Shown here piece by piece: positions 23,970 to 43,220 of a stretch of DNA of 64,000 bases (its first letter is position 1; each line of letters opens with the position of its first letter). Made by a program: the position numbers and the translations under genes. Under the pieces are notes generated by a model. It was not told the DNA's origin. It did no database searches and saw nothing but the letters and a program-made list of their open reading frames with translations. The stretch lies in sequence record PV730300.1. One strand, given 5' to 3'. Origin of the DNA: a phage.

Positions 23970-24044
23970 GGCCCTGTAGCTCAATGGGAGAGCTGTCGGC
24001 TCATAACCGATAGGTAGCTGGATCGAAACCAGCCAGGGCCACCA
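23970..24044 (+). tRNA. tRNA-Met (anticodon CAT)
   Basis: Manual cloverleaf: acceptor GGCCCTG/CAGGGCC, anticodon loop CTCATAA, CCA encoded. Confidence 0.7.
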
Positions 24045-24046
24045 AC

Positions 24047-24121
24047 GTCTTTATGGTGTAATGGATAGCACAGGAGTCTTCTAAACTCTTAGTCAAGGTT
24101 CGATTCCTTGTAAAGACACCA
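24047..24121 (+). tRNA. tRNA-Arg (anticodon TCT)
   Basis: Acceptor GTCTTTA/TAAAGAC, anticodon loop CTTCTAA, T arm CAAGG-TTCGATT-CCTTG. Confidence 0.65.
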
Positions 24122-24122
24122 G

Positions 24123-24306
24123 AACATTTTAACATGAATTAGCTCAAGTGATTTGAACCCACTACTGATCATGGTGGCAGAGAATGAGGCAAGTATGTCA
24201 GACATTATAAACAAAGGCCACGGTTATATTAGAAGACATAAATGCTCGAAGAGCACCGTTCGTTGAGAACGGGGGTTGGTGGAGTCACCATTCATGGTAA
24301 AATGTT
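24123..24306 (+). ncRNA. candidate structured small RNA 2
   Basis: 16-nt terminal helix AACATTTTAACATGAA (24123-24138) / TTCATGGTAAAATGTT (24291-24306), 15 of 16 paired, enclosing several hairpins. Confidence 0.35.
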
Positions 24307-24317
24307 TTAAAAAACTA

Positions 24318-24347
24318 TTGACAACTAACATTATTTTATGTTAGATT
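24318..24347 (+). promoter_or_regulatory. sigma70-like promoter (internal to the tRNA cluster)
   Basis: AAACTATTGACA at 24318-24323, 17 nt, TGTTAGATT-type -10. Confidence 0.45.
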
Positions 24348-24355
24348 ATAAGTAT

Positions 24356-24446
24356 GGAAGGGCAAATCGACGTGGCGACGAAAACGGTCTTGAAAACCGC
24401 CGAGCTTGAAAGAGCCTTGGGAGTTCGACTCTCCCTCCTTCCGCCA
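24356..24446 (+). tRNA. tRNA-Ser (anticodon TGA), class II
   Basis: Acceptor GGAAGGG/TCCTTCC, anticodon loop CTTGAAA, long variable arm, CCA encoded. Confidence 0.7.
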
Positions 24447-24451
24447 GATTA

Positions 24452-24537
24452 GGTAGATTGGTGAAATGGTAGCCACGACAGTTTGCTAAACTGTAGTCGG
24501 AAACGGCGTGTAGGTTCGAGTCCTACATCTACCGCCA
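24452..24537 (+). tRNA. tRNA-Ser (anticodon GCT), class II
   Basis: Acceptor GGTAGAT/ATCTACC, anticodon loop TTGCTAA, long variable arm. Confidence 0.7.
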
Positions 24538-24667
24538 AGTTCTTTTTAATATAGCTTACTTTAATAGAGTAAACTTTCGGCAGATGGCCCCCACCATCTT
24601 ACCGATAACTCATAGTTAGTGGTGTGAACACTGGCTATTTTAAAAAGAATTTAAATATTAGTATTTA

Positions 24668-24755
24668 GGTGAGTTAATTCCGTAGGGGTAGCGGGGCAGA
24701 CTGTAAATCTGTTATCATTGCGATTCGGGTGGTTCGACTCCATCACTCACCACCA
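24668..24755 (+). tRNA. tRNA-Tyr (anticodon GTA), class II
   Basis: Acceptor GGTGAGT/ACTCACC, anticodon loop CTGTAAA. Confidence 0.7.
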
Positions 24756-24761
24756 AATTAA

Positions 24762-24847
24762 GATGAGTTGGCTGAATGGTTTAAGCGGCGGACTGTTAAT
24801 CCGTGTTCGAAAGAACGATATAGGTTCAAATCCTATACTCATCGCCA
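24762..24847 (+). tRNA. class II tRNA, isotype uncertain (anticodon loop reads CTGTTAA, i.e. GTT)
   Basis: Acceptor GATGAGT/ACTCATC, T arm ATAGG-TTCAAAT-CCTAT, about 15-nt variable arm; anticodon assignment ambiguous by hand. Confidence 0.45.
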
Positions 24848-24937
24848 GAATTATGGACTTGTAGAGTTAAGGTAAACCCCCAGTCGCCAAGAGGCTTCTG
24901 AAATTGCAGGTATCGAATCCTGCCGAGTCCCAGCTTT

Positions 24938-25012
24938 GCTCCTATAGTATAATGGCTATTACAACGGTTTTGTAATCCGTGGATCTCTGTTCGATTCAGA
25001 GTGGGAGCACCA
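24938..25012 (+). tRNA. tRNA-Thr (anticodon TGT)
   Basis: Acceptor GCTCCTA/TGGGAGC, anticodon loop TTTGTAA, T arm CTCTG-TTCGATT-CAGAG. Confidence 0.6.
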
Positions 25013-25287
25013 ACACAACATTAAGAGCACTGTGATTGATCGTCGTATCCTGTGCACAAGGTCTGTTCGAAAGACAGTGTTCTTAGTATTGTGTTGATCA
25101 CACAAAAAGAGTTACCTGAAACTTGACCGGAGTAGGGTTGGATGGGGCAAAAGAAGAAGCGGCTCTCCCATCGACAGCAACGAAGAATAATATTTGACTT
25201 TGGTTTTGTATTATTTTAAGTTAGCTTACCGAACGTAGGGCTAGTCACCCAATGGGATACTCGTCACTGTCCCACTCAATAAAACTA

Positions 25288-25317
25288 TTGACAACCAATA
25301 GTAAAATGTAGTATAGT
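25288..25317 (+). promoter_or_regulatory. sigma70-like promoter (internal to the tRNA cluster)
   Basis: AAACTATTGACA at 25288-25293, about 18 nt, TATAGT. Confidence 0.45.
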
Positions 25318-25328
25318 AAAGATGTAGG

Positions 25329-25403
25329 GCGTTCTTGGTGTAGCGGTAGCATTCCGTCCTTCCAAGTCGGCGGCACGAGTTCGATCCTCGTAGAACGCTC
25401 CAA
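25329..25403 (+). tRNA. tRNA-Gly (anticodon TCC)
   Basis: Acceptor GCGTTCT/AGAACGC, anticodon loop CTTCCAA, T arm ACGAG-TTCGATC-CTCGT. Confidence 0.7.
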
Positions 25404-25500
25404 ATTATTTAATAAAGGGTTGCCAGAAAACTTTCTCTTTTACTCATGGTTTTCTCCTTCTCTCACACCTCTTCTGGTTGCCCTTCATTAAATGATTTAT

Positions 25501-25576
25501 TGGTTTGTAGTGTAGTCCGGTAGCACACGACACTTTGACTGTCGTAGGTTTGGTTCAAATCCAGACAGACCAGCCA
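25501..25576 (+). tRNA. tRNA-Gln (anticodon TTG)
   Basis: Anticodon stem CGACA/TGTCG, loop CTTTGAC, T loop TTCAAAT. Confidence 0.7.
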
Positions 25577-25581
25577 TATAA

Positions 25582-25658
25582 CGGAATTTAGCTCAGTTTG
25601 GTAGAGCATACGCTTTGGGAGCGTAGGGTCGCAGGTTCGAATCCTGCAATTCCGACCA
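25582..25658 (+). tRNA. tRNA-Pro (anticodon TGG)
   Basis: Acceptor CGGAATT/AATTCCG, D stem GCTC/GAGC, anticodon loop TTTGGGA, T arm CGCAGG-TTCGAAT-CCTGC. Confidence 0.8.
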
Positions 25659-25664
25659 ATTTAA

Positions 25665-25738
25665 TGTTTCGTAGTTCAATGGTAGAACCCACGACTGATA
25701 ATCGTGAGACACAAGTTCGATTCTTGTCGAAACAACCA
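25665..25738 (+). tRNA. tRNA-Ile (anticodon GAT)
   Basis: Acceptor TGTTTCG/CGAAACA, anticodon stem CACGA/TCGTG, loop CTGATAA. Confidence 0.75.
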
Positions 25739-25740
25739 GT

Positions 25741-25810
25741 TTCCCGTTAGACTTACAGGATAAGAGTTCCACAGCTTATTGTGATGCTGGTTCGAATCCA
25801 GCACGGGATA
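25741..25810 (+). tRNA. putative tRNA, anticodon not assignable by hand
   Basis: Canonical T arm GCTGG-TTCGAAT-CCAGC and pairing acceptor ends, but no clean anticodon arm could be folded. Confidence 0.3.
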
Positions 25811-25816
25811 CCTAAT

Positions 25817-25895
25817 AGCGGGATAGAGGAGTCTGGTCGTCCTCGCCAGTTTCATATGCTGGAGATCATCGGTTCGAATCCGATTCCCGCCTCCA
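25817..25895 (+). tRNA. tRNA-Met (anticodon CAT), possibly initiator-like or Ile2-type
   Basis: Anticodon loop TTCATAT, T arm ATCGG-TTCGAAT-CCGAT, A1-C72 mismatch at the top of the acceptor stem. Confidence 0.6.
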
Positions 25896-38781: not shown

Positions 38782-38803
38782 AGGGCAGAAATGCCCTTTT
38801 TAT
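38782..38803 (+). terminator. intrinsic terminator
   Basis: AGGGCA-GAAA-TGCCCT hairpin followed by TTTTT. Confidence 0.6.
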
Positions 38804-38819
38804 CATTAGAGAGGAAAAT

Positions 38820-39302
38820 ATGTCACAAGAACAAGATAACACAATTCAAAAATATGCTCGACCAGAAGAAGTAGTTGAGATTCCGTTAGATGGAAACAGA
38901 TCTGTTACTTTCCGTATTATGAAGTGGAGTCCATCTAAAGTGTTTGACAGGATTCCAGAATTGGGTAGTGTTCTGGTTGTTCCTATGACTATGTATAGCA
39001 CAGCAACAATGTCCGCAGACGAAGACCTTGAGTCACGTATTGCTATGGCACTGATCCAACTTTTTGCGGGTTTGGAAGAAAAGAATTTAACTGTCTTTTT
39101 GCGTAAAATTTTAGATGAGGTTTATACTCAAGACGGTTATAACGTTGCAGAAAATTTTGATGAATTATTTATGGCTCACCCAGAACTAGTGTTAGATCTT
39201 ACTGCTAAAGTTCTGGAGGTAAACTACGGCCCTTTTTTCAAACGAGGTTTCGGAAAACTGTTCACACAGCTTCAGGCGATGACGAGTTTAGCAGCAAATT
39301 AA
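38820..39302 (+). CDS. tail assembly chaperone (putative) with candidate -1 frameshift extension to 39568
   Basis: Slippery heptamer T_TTT_TTC at 39233-39239 in frame 0; the -1 frame is open from there to 39568. Confidence 0.45.
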   Translation: MSQEQDNTIQKYARPEEVVEIPLDGNRSVTFRIMKWSPSKVFDRIPELGSVLVVPMTMYSTATMSADEDLESRIAMALIQLFAGLEEKNLTVFLRKILDEVYTQDGYNVAENFDELFMAHPELVLDLTAKVLEVNYGPFFKRGFGKLFTQLQAMTSLAAN

Positions 39303-39564
39303 CACCTGCGATTGAACATGCTATCGACACAGCAACGAAAACCCTTACTTTGAAGTGGTATGAGGTTATTCTTTGCAAAGTCGTTAAAGATACCTCGGAA
39401 ACACTGAAAACATTGGATAACTACGGTGTAGATTATCTTTTAAAACTATATGAGTATTTAACATACGAAGAGTATGTTGAAGCCATGTATGTTAAAGACA
39501 CTTCAATAAAGAGAAAACATCAAAACCAAACAAATAAAATGTCAGATTTGTTTAAGAAACTTGT

Positions 39565-39593
39565 TTGACTTTAAAACGTCACGGTGGTATACT
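39565..39593 (+). promoter_or_regulatory. sigma70-like promoter (TTGACT-N17-TGgTATACT) upstream of the endonuclease ORF
   Basis: TTGACT at 39565-39570, TATACT at 39588-39593. Confidence 0.5.
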
Positions 39594-39620
39594 TCTTTTA
39601 TTGAATAGAGGAGGAACATC

Positions 39621-40937
39621 ATGCGTGGCGTTTTAAATATTATAGGTCAAGACCCAAACAATCCAGACAAAATTCTGGTTACATGCTCTATCTGTTCAGA
39701 AGATAAAGAACTTTATCCTCAACCTTTCAGCATGTTCAAAAGTAACTTTGGTAGGCAAACACCTTGTGGTTGCTCAAAATGTCCAAAACTAAGTGAAGAT
39801 CAAGCCTACATTGTAGCAAAGAGAGCTACAGAAGCTTTAGGATACACTTTTTTAGGTTGGAGTAAAGAATACACAGGCTCAAGTTCTACAAAAATCCGTT
39901 GTGTTTGTCCTGAACATGGGGAATGGAACACTGGTATAATTTCAACGATTCGGAAGGGTGTGGGTTGTCCAAAGTGTGTAGATCCTAGGAAAAGAAAAGA
40001 TTTAGTAAAAGCTGAAGATTTCTTGGCAACAGGCTTCTTTGAAGATGGGACTACTTTTACCAAATCTGAAAGAAAAGATAAAAATGGTTGGAGTCCTTAT
40101 TGGTTTGTTACCTGCCCTACATGTTCAAATGATAAGTTTGTAAAAGCTGGACTTTGCTCTGGTATCTTTGAAGGCATGAAGTCTAATCTTTTGAAGGGTG
40201 CTAAACCTTGTCGTTGTTCTTCAAGGTATGTATACACTGAAGAGCAATATATTTTACGAATTAACACTGAAACACCTTATAGCTTTATTCGTTGGATTGG
40301 GAAGTTTAAAGGTAATCGCTCAAAAGTTGTAGTTTTTTGCGAAGAACATGGCGGTGAGATAGAGATGACTGTTTTTGGTTTGTTATCGGGAAACCGTTGT
40401 ATTACTTGTCACGGACACAAACCGAAACCAGAGACTGACATGAAAGAACAATTGAAAAAGGTTTGTGAGGAACGTGGATACACTTTTGTAAAGCTTATTG
40501 ATTACAAATCAAATAAGAGTTCTTTTCAATACTCTTGCAAAACCCACGGCATCCAACAAATATCAATCACAAACTTTATACACGGTGAACAAGGTTGTCC
40601 AGAATGTAGAGGTAAAAATCAGACCTATGCTTATATTCACCTGGTGGAAGATGAGGGTCTTGGTATTATTGGTCTTAAATTTGGAATAACAAAAAATCCA
40701 AGAATAAGAATAAGGCAACAGAATCGACTTGCTAAATATAAACTACGCAAGTTTAAGTTATATAGATTTGAAACTGTGGCAGCTTGTCGCACCGCAGAGA
40801 AAGAAGTGAAAGACGTTTTACCTTGCGGAGTTTTCTCCCAACAAGACATTCCAGACGGGTGGACAGAGACAACTTATATCTACAACCTGGAAAACATTAT
40901 GAAAATCTTTGAAGATAATGGAGGAATACTTTGTTAG
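39621..40937 (+). CDS. homing endonuclease-like protein: five tandem Cys-rich zinc-ribbon repeats plus C-terminal T5orf172 / GIY-YIG-like domain
   Basis: Repeated Cys-pair zinc-ribbon modules (e.g. CPEHG...CPKC, CEEHG...CITC, CKTHG...CPEC); C-terminal YIHLVEDEGLGIIGLKFGIT...R...Q pattern; own ribosome-binding site (GAGGAGG); lies directly 5' of the intron core. Confidence 0.5.
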   Translation: MRGVLNIIGQDPNNPDKILVTCSICSEDKELYPQPFSMFKSNFGRQTPCGCSKCPKLSEDQAYIVAKRATEALGYTFLGWSKEYTGSSSTKIRCVCPEHGEWNTGIISTIRKGVGCPKCVDPRKRKDLVKAEDFLATGFFEDGTTFTKSERKDKNGWSPYWFVTCPTCSNDKFVKAGLCSGIFEGMKSNLLKGAKPCRCSSRYVYTEEQYILRINTETPYSFIRWIGKFKGNRSKVVVFCEEHGGEIEMTVFGLLSGNRCITCHGHKPKPETDMKEQLKKVCEERGYTFVKLIDYKSNKSSFQYSCKTHGIQQISITNFIHGEQGCPECRGKNQTYAYIHLVEDEGLGIIGLKFGITKNPRIRIRQQNRLAKYKLRKFKLYRFETVAACRTAEKEVKDVLPCGVFSQQDIPDGWTETTYIYNLENIMKIFEDNGGILC

Positions 40938-40994
40938 AAATTAACGCCTTAACTTAGGGGCTAATGTGTAGTGATACACATTATCAACTTTGTG

Positions 40995-41185
40995 AATTGC
41001 TGGGACACCCTTAGAGCCACACTACCACTGCGAATCGAAAGATGAAGCCACGGTTTGAAAAGTGTGTGGATTGGGTAATCAGCAGCCAAGCTCCGTTTAG
41101 GAGAAGGTTCAACGACTATCCCGTAAGGGAGTAGGATCAAGTGGTCCGAAGCGCAAAGCGTCTCATGTAGATGAAGATATAGTCT
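40995..41185 (+). ncRNA. group I intron catalytic core (P, Q, R, S elements)
   Basis: P-like AATTGCTGGGAC (40995-41006), Q AATCAGCAGC (41077-41086), R GTTCAACGACTA (41107-41118), S AAGATATAGTCT (41174-41185), in canonical order, with GACTAT/ATAGTC able to form P7. Confidence 0.7.
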
Positions 41186-41264
41186 AATCTGTAGGGAAAC
41201 TTACAGCAGCGAAAGCGGGGAAGAATTAACGAATCTTCCCGAATACAATGCAAAAATTAGTAAC

Positions 41265-43220
41265 GTGGTTACGTTTAAGGTGGACAAGAACAGTCTCAAG
41301 GAAGCAAAAGATGCCGTGTTGAGTGTTCAGAAGTTTGCAAATAAAATGCAACCCACTATGAACATGACCAAGTTTAGACAACAAATGAAAGAGATTGAGC
41401 GTGAACTTAAGAAAGCTCAAACTCAAAGTCAAAAACCTATGCGAGCACCTACTCCCGCTGGAGCGGGTGCTCCTGTAGGTGGATCTGGCAGACCTAGAAC
41501 TCCTAAAACCCCGCAAGGAAGAGAAGAAGAAAAAGCTCGTAAAGCGGCTGAACGCGAAGCTAAAGCAGCAGCACGTAGGGAAGATTTAGGTAATCTTCGT
41601 TTGCAGAACTTTAACTACCGAGCAAAAGCATTTAGTAAAGCCAGTCCTGGCGCTATGCAAGAAGCTAGAGACGTTATGGGTAAAGCTGTAGAGCAATATA
41701 AGAAGGGTGAAATAACTCTTCAACGTATGAACCAAGCTCTTGCTCACCAGTTAGATGCTTTACGCAGATCTCATCGTGAAAAGAATGCTGAAATAGAAGA
41801 CGAGGTTCGCGGTCGTCGCCGTATTCGTAGAGAGCTAGAAGCAGAAGCTAAAATGCGTATACGTATGCGAAACCGTGAACTTAGAGATATAGAACGCAAC
41901 CGTAAGCGTGAATTAGCTCAGCAAAAACGTGATCGTGATCGTCGATATGGACAATTAAAAGAAGGTGCAGCAGGTCTTAATCCACGCATGATTGCATCCT
42001 CTTTGATAGGTGCTGGACTGTTTGCAGGTGGTTCTGTAGTTGGTAACACTTTGATGAATACTAACGAAAGAATTAAAATGGTTAGTCGCGGTGCTGAAAA
42101 CGTCCAAACGAATGCTAACTCTATTTTAACAATGACCGCATGGGGTGAACAAAACGGTGTAGACTCGGCAAATATCATTAAAGCAATAGATAACATTAAA
42201 GACGTTCGTGAACGTCTAGGTAATACCATGATGAACACCAAATGGAACGCAAAAGAAGGGAAATGGAAAGGTGGTGATAACGGTATTACTGATATTATGA
42301 ATGCTTTTGGTTGGAACCCCGATCAAATAAAACATTTGCAAAATGACCCGTTAGCTTTTATCCAAGCCACTGTTAATGAAGGCGAACGTCGAGGCATGAA
42401 CTCTGCTCAAATCGGGCGACTTCTTGAAAACCTTGGTGATGACCTTATGCACTACCAACGTATGTTTAGTAAAAACGGCGAAGGGTATAACGAAGTATTG
42501 AAAATGCTTCAAAGAACAGGTGCAACATTAACTCAAGAACAAATAGATGCTTCTAAAGAGTTTACTCGTTTTGCTGCAACAGTTCAGCTTGTAGGTCAAG
42601 GTATGCAGAACCATTTCCTGGAAGGTTTTGTAAAAGCTTTACCTAAAGATGATTCTTGGTTGGATAATGTTAAAGTGCTAGATCAGTTCGCCAAAGATTT
42701 AGGTGAAGAACTTGGTAAAACAACAGTTCAACTTGGTGGTTTTGCTAAAGAATTGGGAGATGGTTTCGGATCTTTTACCAATTGGCTTAAAGAAACATTC
42801 CCCGATACCTTCGGAGACAACACAGATCCTAATAAATCTATGGCACAAAAAGCATATGAGGCAACGCAAAGTGGAGACAGTAACCCTGTAGCAGATTGGT
42901 TGTACAATTTAACAGGTATTGATACACAAGATATTGGTCGTATGTGGAGAGGAGAGCAAACAAGGACACGTGCTTTTGGATTTGGTAATCCTCTTGAGGA
43001 TTTACGTGAATCAGCCTATACACCTAACGTAAGTTTGGCTCGTAATCAACCTGTTGTTGAGAATACGGTAGCAATACCAAGTGATCTTATCAAAGTTACG
43101 ATCAGCCCTTCTTCCGAGTTTGGAAATATTCTTGATGCAAGAATTCAAAACAGCGGAAATAGCATTTTCCAACGTTTGTCTCTTTCAACTCTAAGTGGAC
43201 AATCTAACACTGGTGGTTAA
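41265..43220 (+). CDS. tail tape measure protein (putative); 5' end probably supplied by splicing
   Basis: 651 aa, coiled-coil and basic-rich, followed by a strong terminator; the listed GTG start has no ribosome-binding site and the frame is open upstream to 41175. Confidence 0.55.
   Translation: MVTFKVDKNSLKEAKDAVLSVQKFANKMQPTMNMTKFRQQMKEIERELKKAQTQSQKPMRAPTPAGAGAPVGGSGRPRTPKTPQGREEEKARKAAEREAKAAARREDLGNLRLQNFNYRAKAFSKASPGAMQEARDVMGKAVEQYKKGEITLQRMNQALAHQLDALRRSHREKNAEIEDEVRGRRRIRRELEAEAKMRIRMRNRELRDIERNRKRELAQQKRDRDRRYGQLKEGAAGLNPRMIASSLIGAGLFAGGSVVGNTLMNTNERIKMVSRGAENVQTNANSILTMTAWGEQNGVDSANIIKAIDNIKDVRERLGNTMMNTKWNAKEGKWKGGDNGITDIMNAFGWNPDQIKHLQNDPLAFIQATVNEGERRGMNSAQIGRLLENLGDDLMHYQRMFSKNGEGYNEVLKMLQRTGATLTQEQIDASKEFTRFAATVQLVGQGMQNHFLEGFVKALPKDDSWLDNVKVLDQFAKDLGEELGKTTVQLGGFAKELGDGFGSFTNWLKETFPDTFGDNTDPNKSMAQKAYEATQSGDSNPVADWLYNLTGIDTQDIGRMWRGEQTRTRAFGFGNPLEDLRESAYTPNVSLARNQPVVENTVAIPSDLIKVTISPSSEFGNILDARIQNSGNSIFQRLSLSTLSGQSNTGG

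Follow-up and report, generated by a model that had tools for sequence, protein, structure and literature searches.

An ORF-free group I intron within a Phapecoctavirus tape measure gene and the free-standing endonuclease gene next to it

We analyzed a 64,000-nucleotide (nt) stretch of phage DNA (sequence record PV730300.1, hereafter the window), which is a genome segment of a Phapecoctavirus, a phAPEC8-like E. coli myovirus. Around the start of its tape measure gene we found a 301-nt group I intron that contains no open reading frame (ORF) and interrupts codon 7, together with a homing endonuclease gene that ends 12 nt ahead of the 5' splice site. Alignment with uninterrupted alleles places the endonuclease gene outside of the intron and indicates two adjacent but distinct selfish elements. 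A first-pass annotation, made from the sequence alone, had instead proposed a single composite intron carrying the endonuclease ORF. We consider it probable that the locus combines a self-splicing, ORF-less intron with a free-standing endonuclease and that both spread by trans or "collaborative" homing.

Results

The intron and its boundaries

A covariance-model search with Rfam yielded a match to RF00028 at 40938-41206 over the full model (positions 1-253), with a score of 92.9 bits compared with a gathering score of 50 (E 1.4e-22). This was the sole non-tRNA Rfam match in the 64 kb window. The four core elements expected of a group I intron could be read in the sequence, in order and at the coordinates proposed by the first-pass annotation:

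40995-41006: P-like element, AATTGCTGGGAC
41077-41086: Q element, AATCAGCAGC
41107-41118: R element, GTTCAACGACTA
41174-41185: S element, AAGATATAGTCT

GACTAT at 41114-41119 can pair with ATAGTC at 41179-41184 to form P7. A group I intron at this locus is far above chance expectation, and its earlier identification is borne out by the Rfam score and by the covariation of the fold described below.

Over positions 38800-41700, the window is 99.1% identical to Escherichia phage nepoznato, the only carrier of the same block in the phage collection. A total of 1643 bp present here is absent from about 65 near-identical Phapecoctavirus records (flanks at least 95% identical), which have neither the endonuclease gene nor the intron. 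Two empty alleles, ESCO5 and L025, served as boundary references. Both are contiguous exactly across 39567-40920 and across 40950-41250. The empty ESCO5 allele reads ...CTTGTTTAATCCAACACGAGGAACATACT TTG TTA GAA ATT AAC GCC TCC AAA ATT AGT AAC GTG..., with its annotated tape measure coding sequence (CDS) beginning at the TTG equivalent to 40931. In the window, TTGTTAGAAATTAACGCCT at 40931-40949 is followed by 301 nt ending in ...AATG and then by CAAAAATTAGTAACGTG. Since the intronless alleles with this TTG start and TCC at codon 7 settle the boundaries, the intron corresponds to 40950-41250. It is inserted after nucleotide 19 of the tape measure gene, with U as the terminal base of the 5' exon and G (G41250) as that of the intron. 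The resulting gene structure is as follows:

40920-40925, plus strand: ribosome-binding site GGAGGA of the tape measure gene, within the last codons of the endonuclease ORF
40931-40949, plus strand: coding part of tape measure exon 1, TTG TTA GAA ATT AAC GCC T, equal to the first 19 nt of the ESCO5 CDS
40950-41250, plus strand: group I intron, 301 nt, no ORF, bounds from the intronless alleles
41251-43220, plus strand: tape measure exon 2, encoding 662 amino acids (aa) together with exon 1

In silico splicing at the predicted junction AACGCCT/CAAAAATT gives a 662-aa ORF that starts with LEINASKISNVVTFKVDK and is identical to ESCO5 over its first 60 aa. The tape measure frame is likewise restored in two diverged occupied alleles, L017 and L020. 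Splicing would give an mRNA whose encoded N-terminus equals that of the intronless relatives, which supports the earlier suggestion that the first tape measure codons may be joined by splicing. In unspliced RNA, the exon-1 frame reaches a TAG at 40955-40957. The downstream tape measure frame can be read back without a stop to 41175, next to a TGA at 41172-41174. The first-pass annotation had started the tape measure ORF at 41265 and noted its lack of a ribosome-binding site. Indeed, none is found ahead of 41265 or 41280, and the real start is located at 40931. The intronless relatives start at the equivalent of 40931 instead of having a plain spacer and a start at 41265. The codon at 41265 is GTG in the window and GTT in nepoznato, and a look-up of the 651-aa ORF beginning there returned no record. 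For nepoznato, RefSeq lists just an "endonuclease" and a tape measure CDS that begins at the GTG corresponding to 41280. The N-terminal sequence MLEINxSKI is conserved as far as phi92 and the exon-1 codons are in frame in three lineages. Further, the 620-aa tape measure segment of the empty L025 is identical to that of the window, so the same sequence occurs with and without the block. The intron had been described as lying immediately 5' of the tape measure gene; it is located inside of the gene. With U40949 opposite G40958 in P1, a predicted guanosine-binding G-C pair in P7 and G41250 at its end, the intron most likely self-splices.

Structure of the intron RNA

Folding of the region gave a structure extending from P1 to P9.2:

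P1, 40946-40950 with 40957-40961, plus strand: GCCU/U with GGGGC, loop AACUUA, minimum-free-energy fold
P2, 40962-40983, plus strand: GNRA-capped hairpin
P3, 40988-40994 with 41152-41158, plus strand
P4, 40997-41003 with 41079-41085, plus strand
P5, 41007-41010 with 41073-41076, plus strand: the fold also shows 5a/5b
P6, 41086-41107, plus strand
P7, 41112-41119 with 41179-41185, plus strand: G41114-C41184, C41113 bulged
P7.1, 41120-41129, plus strand
P7.2, 41134-41147, plus strand
P8, 41159-41173, plus strand
P9, 41189-41206, plus strand: GAAA loop
P9.1, plus strand: 2-bp hairpin with little support
P9.2, 41218-41240, plus strand

In the minimum-free-energy fold, a U40949-G40958 wobble pair lies in P1 at the 5' splice site. 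The first helix of the Rfam model aligns on P1, whose sequence is identical in L017 and L020. To test the hand-drawn P1-P9.2 structure, we aligned the intron with four introns of other phages, its nearest relatives at 70-78% identity. They come from the RNA polymerase genes of Pseudomonas N4-like and phiKZ-like phages, from a Serratia jumbo phage and from the capsid gene of a Vibrio phage. Standard pairs accounted for 86.8% compared with 31-42% when the 3' partners were slid by 1-3 columns. Both sides had changed in 45 pairs, and none of 500 shuffles reached the observed values. The G41114-C41184 pair is invariant in all five related introns and is, by analogy, the predicted guanosine-binding pair. 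P7.2 shows compensatory changes and P7.1 partial support (66.7% of cells paired), while natural variants fall in loops, for example GUAA to GAAA in L7.1. Because P7.1 and P7.2 are located between P7 and P3', the intron is placed in subgroup IA (class definition in PMC3984707 and established knowledge).

Related cores in Serratia phage 2050HW (L015, 1470-2759), Vibrio phage 1.232.O (L016, 2501-3393) and Pseudomonas phage Pa_WF01 (L013, 2453-3440) lie in RNA polymerase or capsid genes and adjoin endonuclease ORFs of the HNH/NUMOD4 type, located just upstream or downstream, instead of T5orf172 genes. Related ribozymes are thus paired with unrelated endonuclease families.

The endonuclease gene and its product

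The endonuclease gene occupies a cassette in the spacer between an ORF extending the tail assembly chaperone gene and the tape measure gene:

39565-39593, plus strand: sigma-70-like promoter site TTGACT-17-TATACT with TG before the -10 element, 10/12 matches
39567-40920, plus strand: endonuclease cassette, replacing 10 nt (AATCCAACAC) according to the alignment with ESCO5 and L025
39608-39614, plus strand: endonuclease ribosome-binding site GAGGAGG, read from the sequence
39621-40937, plus strand: free-standing homing endonuclease ORF, 438 aa

The right edge of the cassette is ambiguous within GAGGAA..TACT. The putative promoter sits on the left junction of the insertion, and a similar layout precedes the diverged orthologues (TTGACA-17-TATTAT in L017 and TTGACA-17-TAAAAT in L021). 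The endonuclease stop codon (TAG, 40935-40937) overlaps tape measure codons 2-3 and precedes the 5' splice site (40949/40950) by 12 nt. In four lineages, the C-terminal Gly-Gly codons of the endonuclease (GGAGGx) double as the tape measure ribosome-binding site, at the following overlap regions:

Window, 40920-40937
L017, 5297-5314
L020, 1384-1404
L021, 4905-4927

Given this overlap and the stop codon inside the first tape measure codons, the insertion supplies the translation signals of its host gene. In the empty allele, the two insertion sites are about 31 bp apart.

The first-pass annotation had described the product as a zinc-ribbon-repeat endonuclease, and domain searches agree with this predicted identity. 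Residues 1 to about 330 contain five CapR/DUF723 zinc-ribbon modules (Pfam CapR, 156 bits in five stretches; DUF723, 23.2 bits against a cut-off of 20.9), and a putative nuclease domain, T5orf172/GIY-YIG-like, extends from about residue 334 to 438. Among 28 aligned homologues, 11 matched T5orf172 and 8 matched MUG113 (E <= 0.01), both of which we take to be Pfam families of the GIY-YIG clan. In their C-terminal domain, these homologues share K, G, R, E and E without exception and one Y almost without exception. An AlphaFold2 model of residues 322-438 reached a pLDDT (per-residue model confidence) of 94.7 and has the predicted GIY-YIG fold with conserved Tyr, Arg and Glu. It can be predicted that the zinc ribbons bind DNA and that the T5orf172/GIY-YIG-like domain cuts it. 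The alignment with ORF174 of Vibrio phage ICP1 covers 84% of the protein length. Compared with the nepoznato gene, there are 12 nucleotide and 2 amino-acid differences.

Distribution of the two elements

Twelve contigs from many samples encode an endonuclease identical to that of the window, and each of the ten that were read carries the gene and the intron in the order of the window. In several metagenomes, both elements make up a single insertion-specific contig. Four contigs, each of 1746 bp, cover precisely 39537-41282 and extend 30 nt beyond 39567 and 41252, the first and last positions differing from the empty allele. We interpret these as k=31 unitigs branching against a co-occurring empty allele, with no internal branch. 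The block is polymorphic between genomes with about 99.5% identical flanks as well as within single samples, and among close relatives no record contains just one part.

Diverged occupied alleles (L017-L019, L020 and L021) and further empty alleles (phi92, KP2025 and phiWec188) were also compared. Endonuclease orthologues at the same site share 68% (L017-L019) and 45% (L020) amino-acid identity with that of the window, and the accompanying introns of 301 and 296 nt (Rfam 86.6 and 90.5 bits) interrupt the same codon. L021 encodes a 308-aa orthologue next to an uninterrupted 659-aa tape measure gene and has no Rfam match. The endonuclease gene and the intron thus occur together in three diverged lineages and the endonuclease gene alone in one, while no intron-only allele was seen among the lineages and records examined. 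An intron-only allele would carry the junction CGAGGAACATACTTTGTTAGAAATTAACGCCTTAACTTAGG and an endonuclease-only allele the junction GGAGGAATACTTTGTTAGAAATTAACGCCTCMAAAATTAG. Pattern scans of IMG/VR returned no match to the exon 1-intron junction, in strict or degenerate form, and none to the spliced junction. A pattern scan of JGI metagenomes gave two matches, both due to chance and without similarity to the window.

Codon 7 is TCA in the four endonuclease-bearing lineages and TCC (ESCO5, phi92), TCT (KP2025) or GCT (phiWec188) in the empty alleles examined. Only the TCC to TCA change and 2 differing nt in the ribosome-binding-site spacer set occupied alleles apart. The flanks were inspected for a long co-conversion tract and showed none, being 99-100% identical to empty alleles up to the junctions. 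The L017 flanks are phiWec188-like, but about 10 nt around the insertion site are window-like, which fits short co-conversion or sequence requirements of P1. Our comparisons thus show the anatomy and boundaries of the locus, the RNA fold with its covariation, the family and fold of the protein and the joint presence or absence of both elements.

Neighboring features

Upstream of the locus, the tail assembly chaperone gene (38820-39302) contains a canonical -1 slippery heptamer, T TTT TTC, at 39233-39239. The -1 frame is open from 39209 to a TGA at 39566-39568, resembling frameshift products of the lambda G/GT type. Instead of being a gene of its own, the 72-aa ORF at 39350-39568 (phrog_16039) probably encodes the C-terminal extension of the chaperone. 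The earlier placement of the 5' splice site near 39560-39620 was rejected; at this point, the cassette has its left boundary and the chaperone extension ends in its stop codon.

Within the tape measure gene, a mosaic patch at 42050-42350 contains 16-25 mismatches per 100 nt compared with ESCO5 (0-7 elsewhere). Mismatches are similarly dense against nepoznato (200-nt bins), and L003 is nearly identical to the window there. This pattern points to recombination inside the tape measure gene that would not be related to the intron.

The window comes from a phage distinct from nepoznato, and the two differ in mobile-element content. The window terminase ORF is uninterrupted (27398-29473, 691 aa), whereas the annotation of nepoznato (NC_052658, 3553-6597; L029) splits the large terminase gene into two parts separated by an HNH endonuclease gene. 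At this terminase split, Rfam detected no group I intron at the gathering score. Finally, 11 tRNA genes are clustered on the plus strand at 23970-25892 (Rfam tRNA, 39-72 bits).

Discussion

Under the two-element interpretation, the endonuclease would break empty alleles near the tape measure start during mixed infection, and repair from an occupied allele would copy the endonuclease gene and the intron jointly because their sites are only about 31 bp apart. Splicing would keep the essential tape measure gene functional. Splicing activity, endonuclease activity, the cut location and a protection of the donor by the intron are steps that we infer. Several results weigh against this interpretation. 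T5orf172 scores in Pfam stay just below the cut-off of 20 for both the whole protein (17.0 bits) and the C-terminal fragment (19.4 bits), and a Foldseek comparison of the protein with the PDB gave nothing significant. Pairing of a P10 with the 3' exon is weak and no convincing helix could be drawn. Looking up contigs by the exact protein skews the set towards identical endonuclease genes. In addition, the L017 endonuclease gene has diverged from that of the window to a similar extent as the flanks (71% vs 73.5%), which is also compatible with long vertical co-residence and loss elsewhere. Lastly, the endonuclease-only allele of L021 implies that the intron is not needed for residence of the endonuclease or for escape of the donor.

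Several alternative explanations were weighed. The first-pass annotation assumed one composite intron of about 1.7 kb, with the ORF in a P1/P2 loop and a 5' splice site near 39560-39620. The ORF does abut the ribozyme core and both parts are missing together in relatives, but we regard this model as practically untenable. ESCO5 and L025, the intronless comparison that the annotation had called for, put the tape measure ribosome-binding site, start and 19 coding nucleotides at 40920-40949, behind nearly all of the ORF and identical to the uninterrupted gene, and fix the intron at 40950-41250. Because the start and first 19 nt of the host gene are found at 40931-40949, the endonuclease ORF lies outside of the intron. 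P1 with its U-G pair is located at 40946-40961, downstream of the ORF and not around it, and the full-length Rfam match begins at 40938. The ORF ending at 39568 is the -1 frameshift extension of the chaperone and provides no tape measure exon, and L021 carries the endonuclease gene beside an intact tape measure gene. It is also very unlikely that the intron is a dead remnant and that translation of the tape measure protein begins internally, at 41265 or 41280. The RefSeq CDS of nepoznato, starting at the latter position, is in line with this idea. However, the ribozyme core is intact with compensatory changes, the exon-1 codons and the MLEINxSKI sequence are maintained, and neither internal start has a ribosome-binding site, with GTT replacing the first one in nepoznato.

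If the two-element interpretation is adopted, the site of cleavage and the role of the intron can still be seen differently. In a strict form of collaborative homing, the endonuclease would recognize the intron site, with the intron serving as donor immunity and the locus representing a transitional stage towards an endonuclease encoded within the intron. The 12-nt gap between stop codon and splice site in three lineages, the TCA codon 7 common to all four endonuclease-bearing lineages and the precedents of S-PM2 and T3/PhiI, as reviewed in PMC3984707, speak for this possibility. With five zinc ribbons, the protein would further be expected to recognize a long site, which could include both points of insertion. 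As L021 tolerates its own endonuclease gene in the absence of an intron, and the target may already be lost through insertion of that gene, we view the strict form as tentative and rather doubtful. Alternatively, the intron may be co-converted passively after a cut at the insertion point of the endonuclease gene itself, as for T4 mobE (PMC2790892). It seems improbable to us that the endonuclease is inactive or domesticated, for instance as a CapR-like DNA-binding regulator, with vertical inheritance of the block and its loss through recombination with empty alleles. The same low probability applies to the associated view of the adjacency as a relic of an older, since replaced intron-encoded endonuclease gene. 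CapR-type repressors exist in PLE satellites, endonuclease turnover at intron loci has been proposed (PMC10448857), and the similar divergence of endonuclease gene and flanks between L017 and the window would fit. Yet five residues of the nuclease domain (K, G, R, E and E) do not vary among 28 homologues and the Y hardly does, the ORF is full length in three lineages with mostly synonymous differences to nepoznato, and the block is polymorphic among about 99.5% identical flanks and within single samples.

The first-pass annotation considered an intron in a tail gene unusual; the tape measure gene of ICP1, however, has three introns (PMC10448857). In the same phage, an intron in terL is accompanied by a T5orf172 endonuclease gene beside the N-terminal exon, with splicing confirmed by reverse transcription PCR, and Barth, Dunham and Seed (2023; PMC10448857) describe gp174 as a T5orf172 endonuclease that has a CapR domain. 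The terL locus is similar to ours in its CapR-type zinc ribbons and, as predicted here, its T5orf172 family, the gene beside a short N-terminal exon, the ORF-less intron and the essential late host gene. It differs in that a terminase gene rather than a tape measure gene is interrupted, in a phage of another group than Phapecoctavirus infecting another bacterium. Compared with ICP1, the present locus adds natural empty and endonuclease-only alleles, while splicing is predicted here from sequence.

Collaborative homing has been described for the psbA intron and F-CphI of cyanophage S-PM2 and for T3 gene 5.3 compared with the intron endonuclease I-TslI of PhiI (Zeng et al. 2009; Bonocora & Shub 2009, via PMC3984707). 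Those endonucleases belong to other families (Endo VII-like and HNH), and their cleavage was demonstrated at the site where the intron inserts. The endonuclease gene here is located upstream in a spacer, overlapping the translation start of the host gene. T4 mobE mobilizes the nrdB intron in trans by co-conversion (PMC2790892; Wilson & Edgell 2009). It is likewise a free-standing endonuclease gene upstream of an interrupted gene whose intron has no working endonuclease. MobE, however, is an HNH nicking enzyme without its own promoter and the nrdB intron keeps a defunct ORF, whereas here an ORF-free intron is found beside an endonuclease gene preceded by a promoter-like site of its own. With regard to the ribozyme, the window intron shares with the T4 td intron the P1-P9 core, P7.1 and P7.2 between P7 and P3', GNRA loops and the location in a gene of a virulent phage. 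The td intron, a member of subgroup IA in the Michel-Westhof classes, carries I-TevI in P6, while the window intron is compact and empty.

Our literature search for a Phapecoctavirus intron returned nothing relevant. The locus is an unannotated addition to a published arrangement, the concept of which dates from 2009 (PMC3984707) and the endonuclease family of which is probably the same in ICP1.

Conclusion

In conclusion, the comparison of intronless alleles was decisive for the boundaries, and an endonuclease ORF beside a ribozyme core does not warrant the assumption that it is intron-encoded. Tape measure genes of the nepoznato type are annotated 16 codons short with the intron unannotated, and metagenomic gene callers err alike. 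Well-documented pairs of a free-standing endonuclease and an empty intron are few; here, such a pair is available with all comparison alleles in easily grown E. coli phages. Crosses between culturable phages (nepoznato against ESCO5 or phAPEC8) would make collaborative homing directly testable. The locus could reveal whether the sites at which introns insert are cut by T5orf172 endonucleases and how far co-conversion extends. At this one site, related coliphages carry three co-circulating kinds of allele: empty, endonuclease-only and endonuclease-plus-intron. A tentative view, to which we give well under even chances, is that the locus represents a natural snapshot of the birth of a mobile intron, in which a long recognition site spans the intron site and the intron acts as the immunity determinant. 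If the site does span the intron insertion, the pair would be one illegitimate recombination short of an intron-encoded endonuclease.

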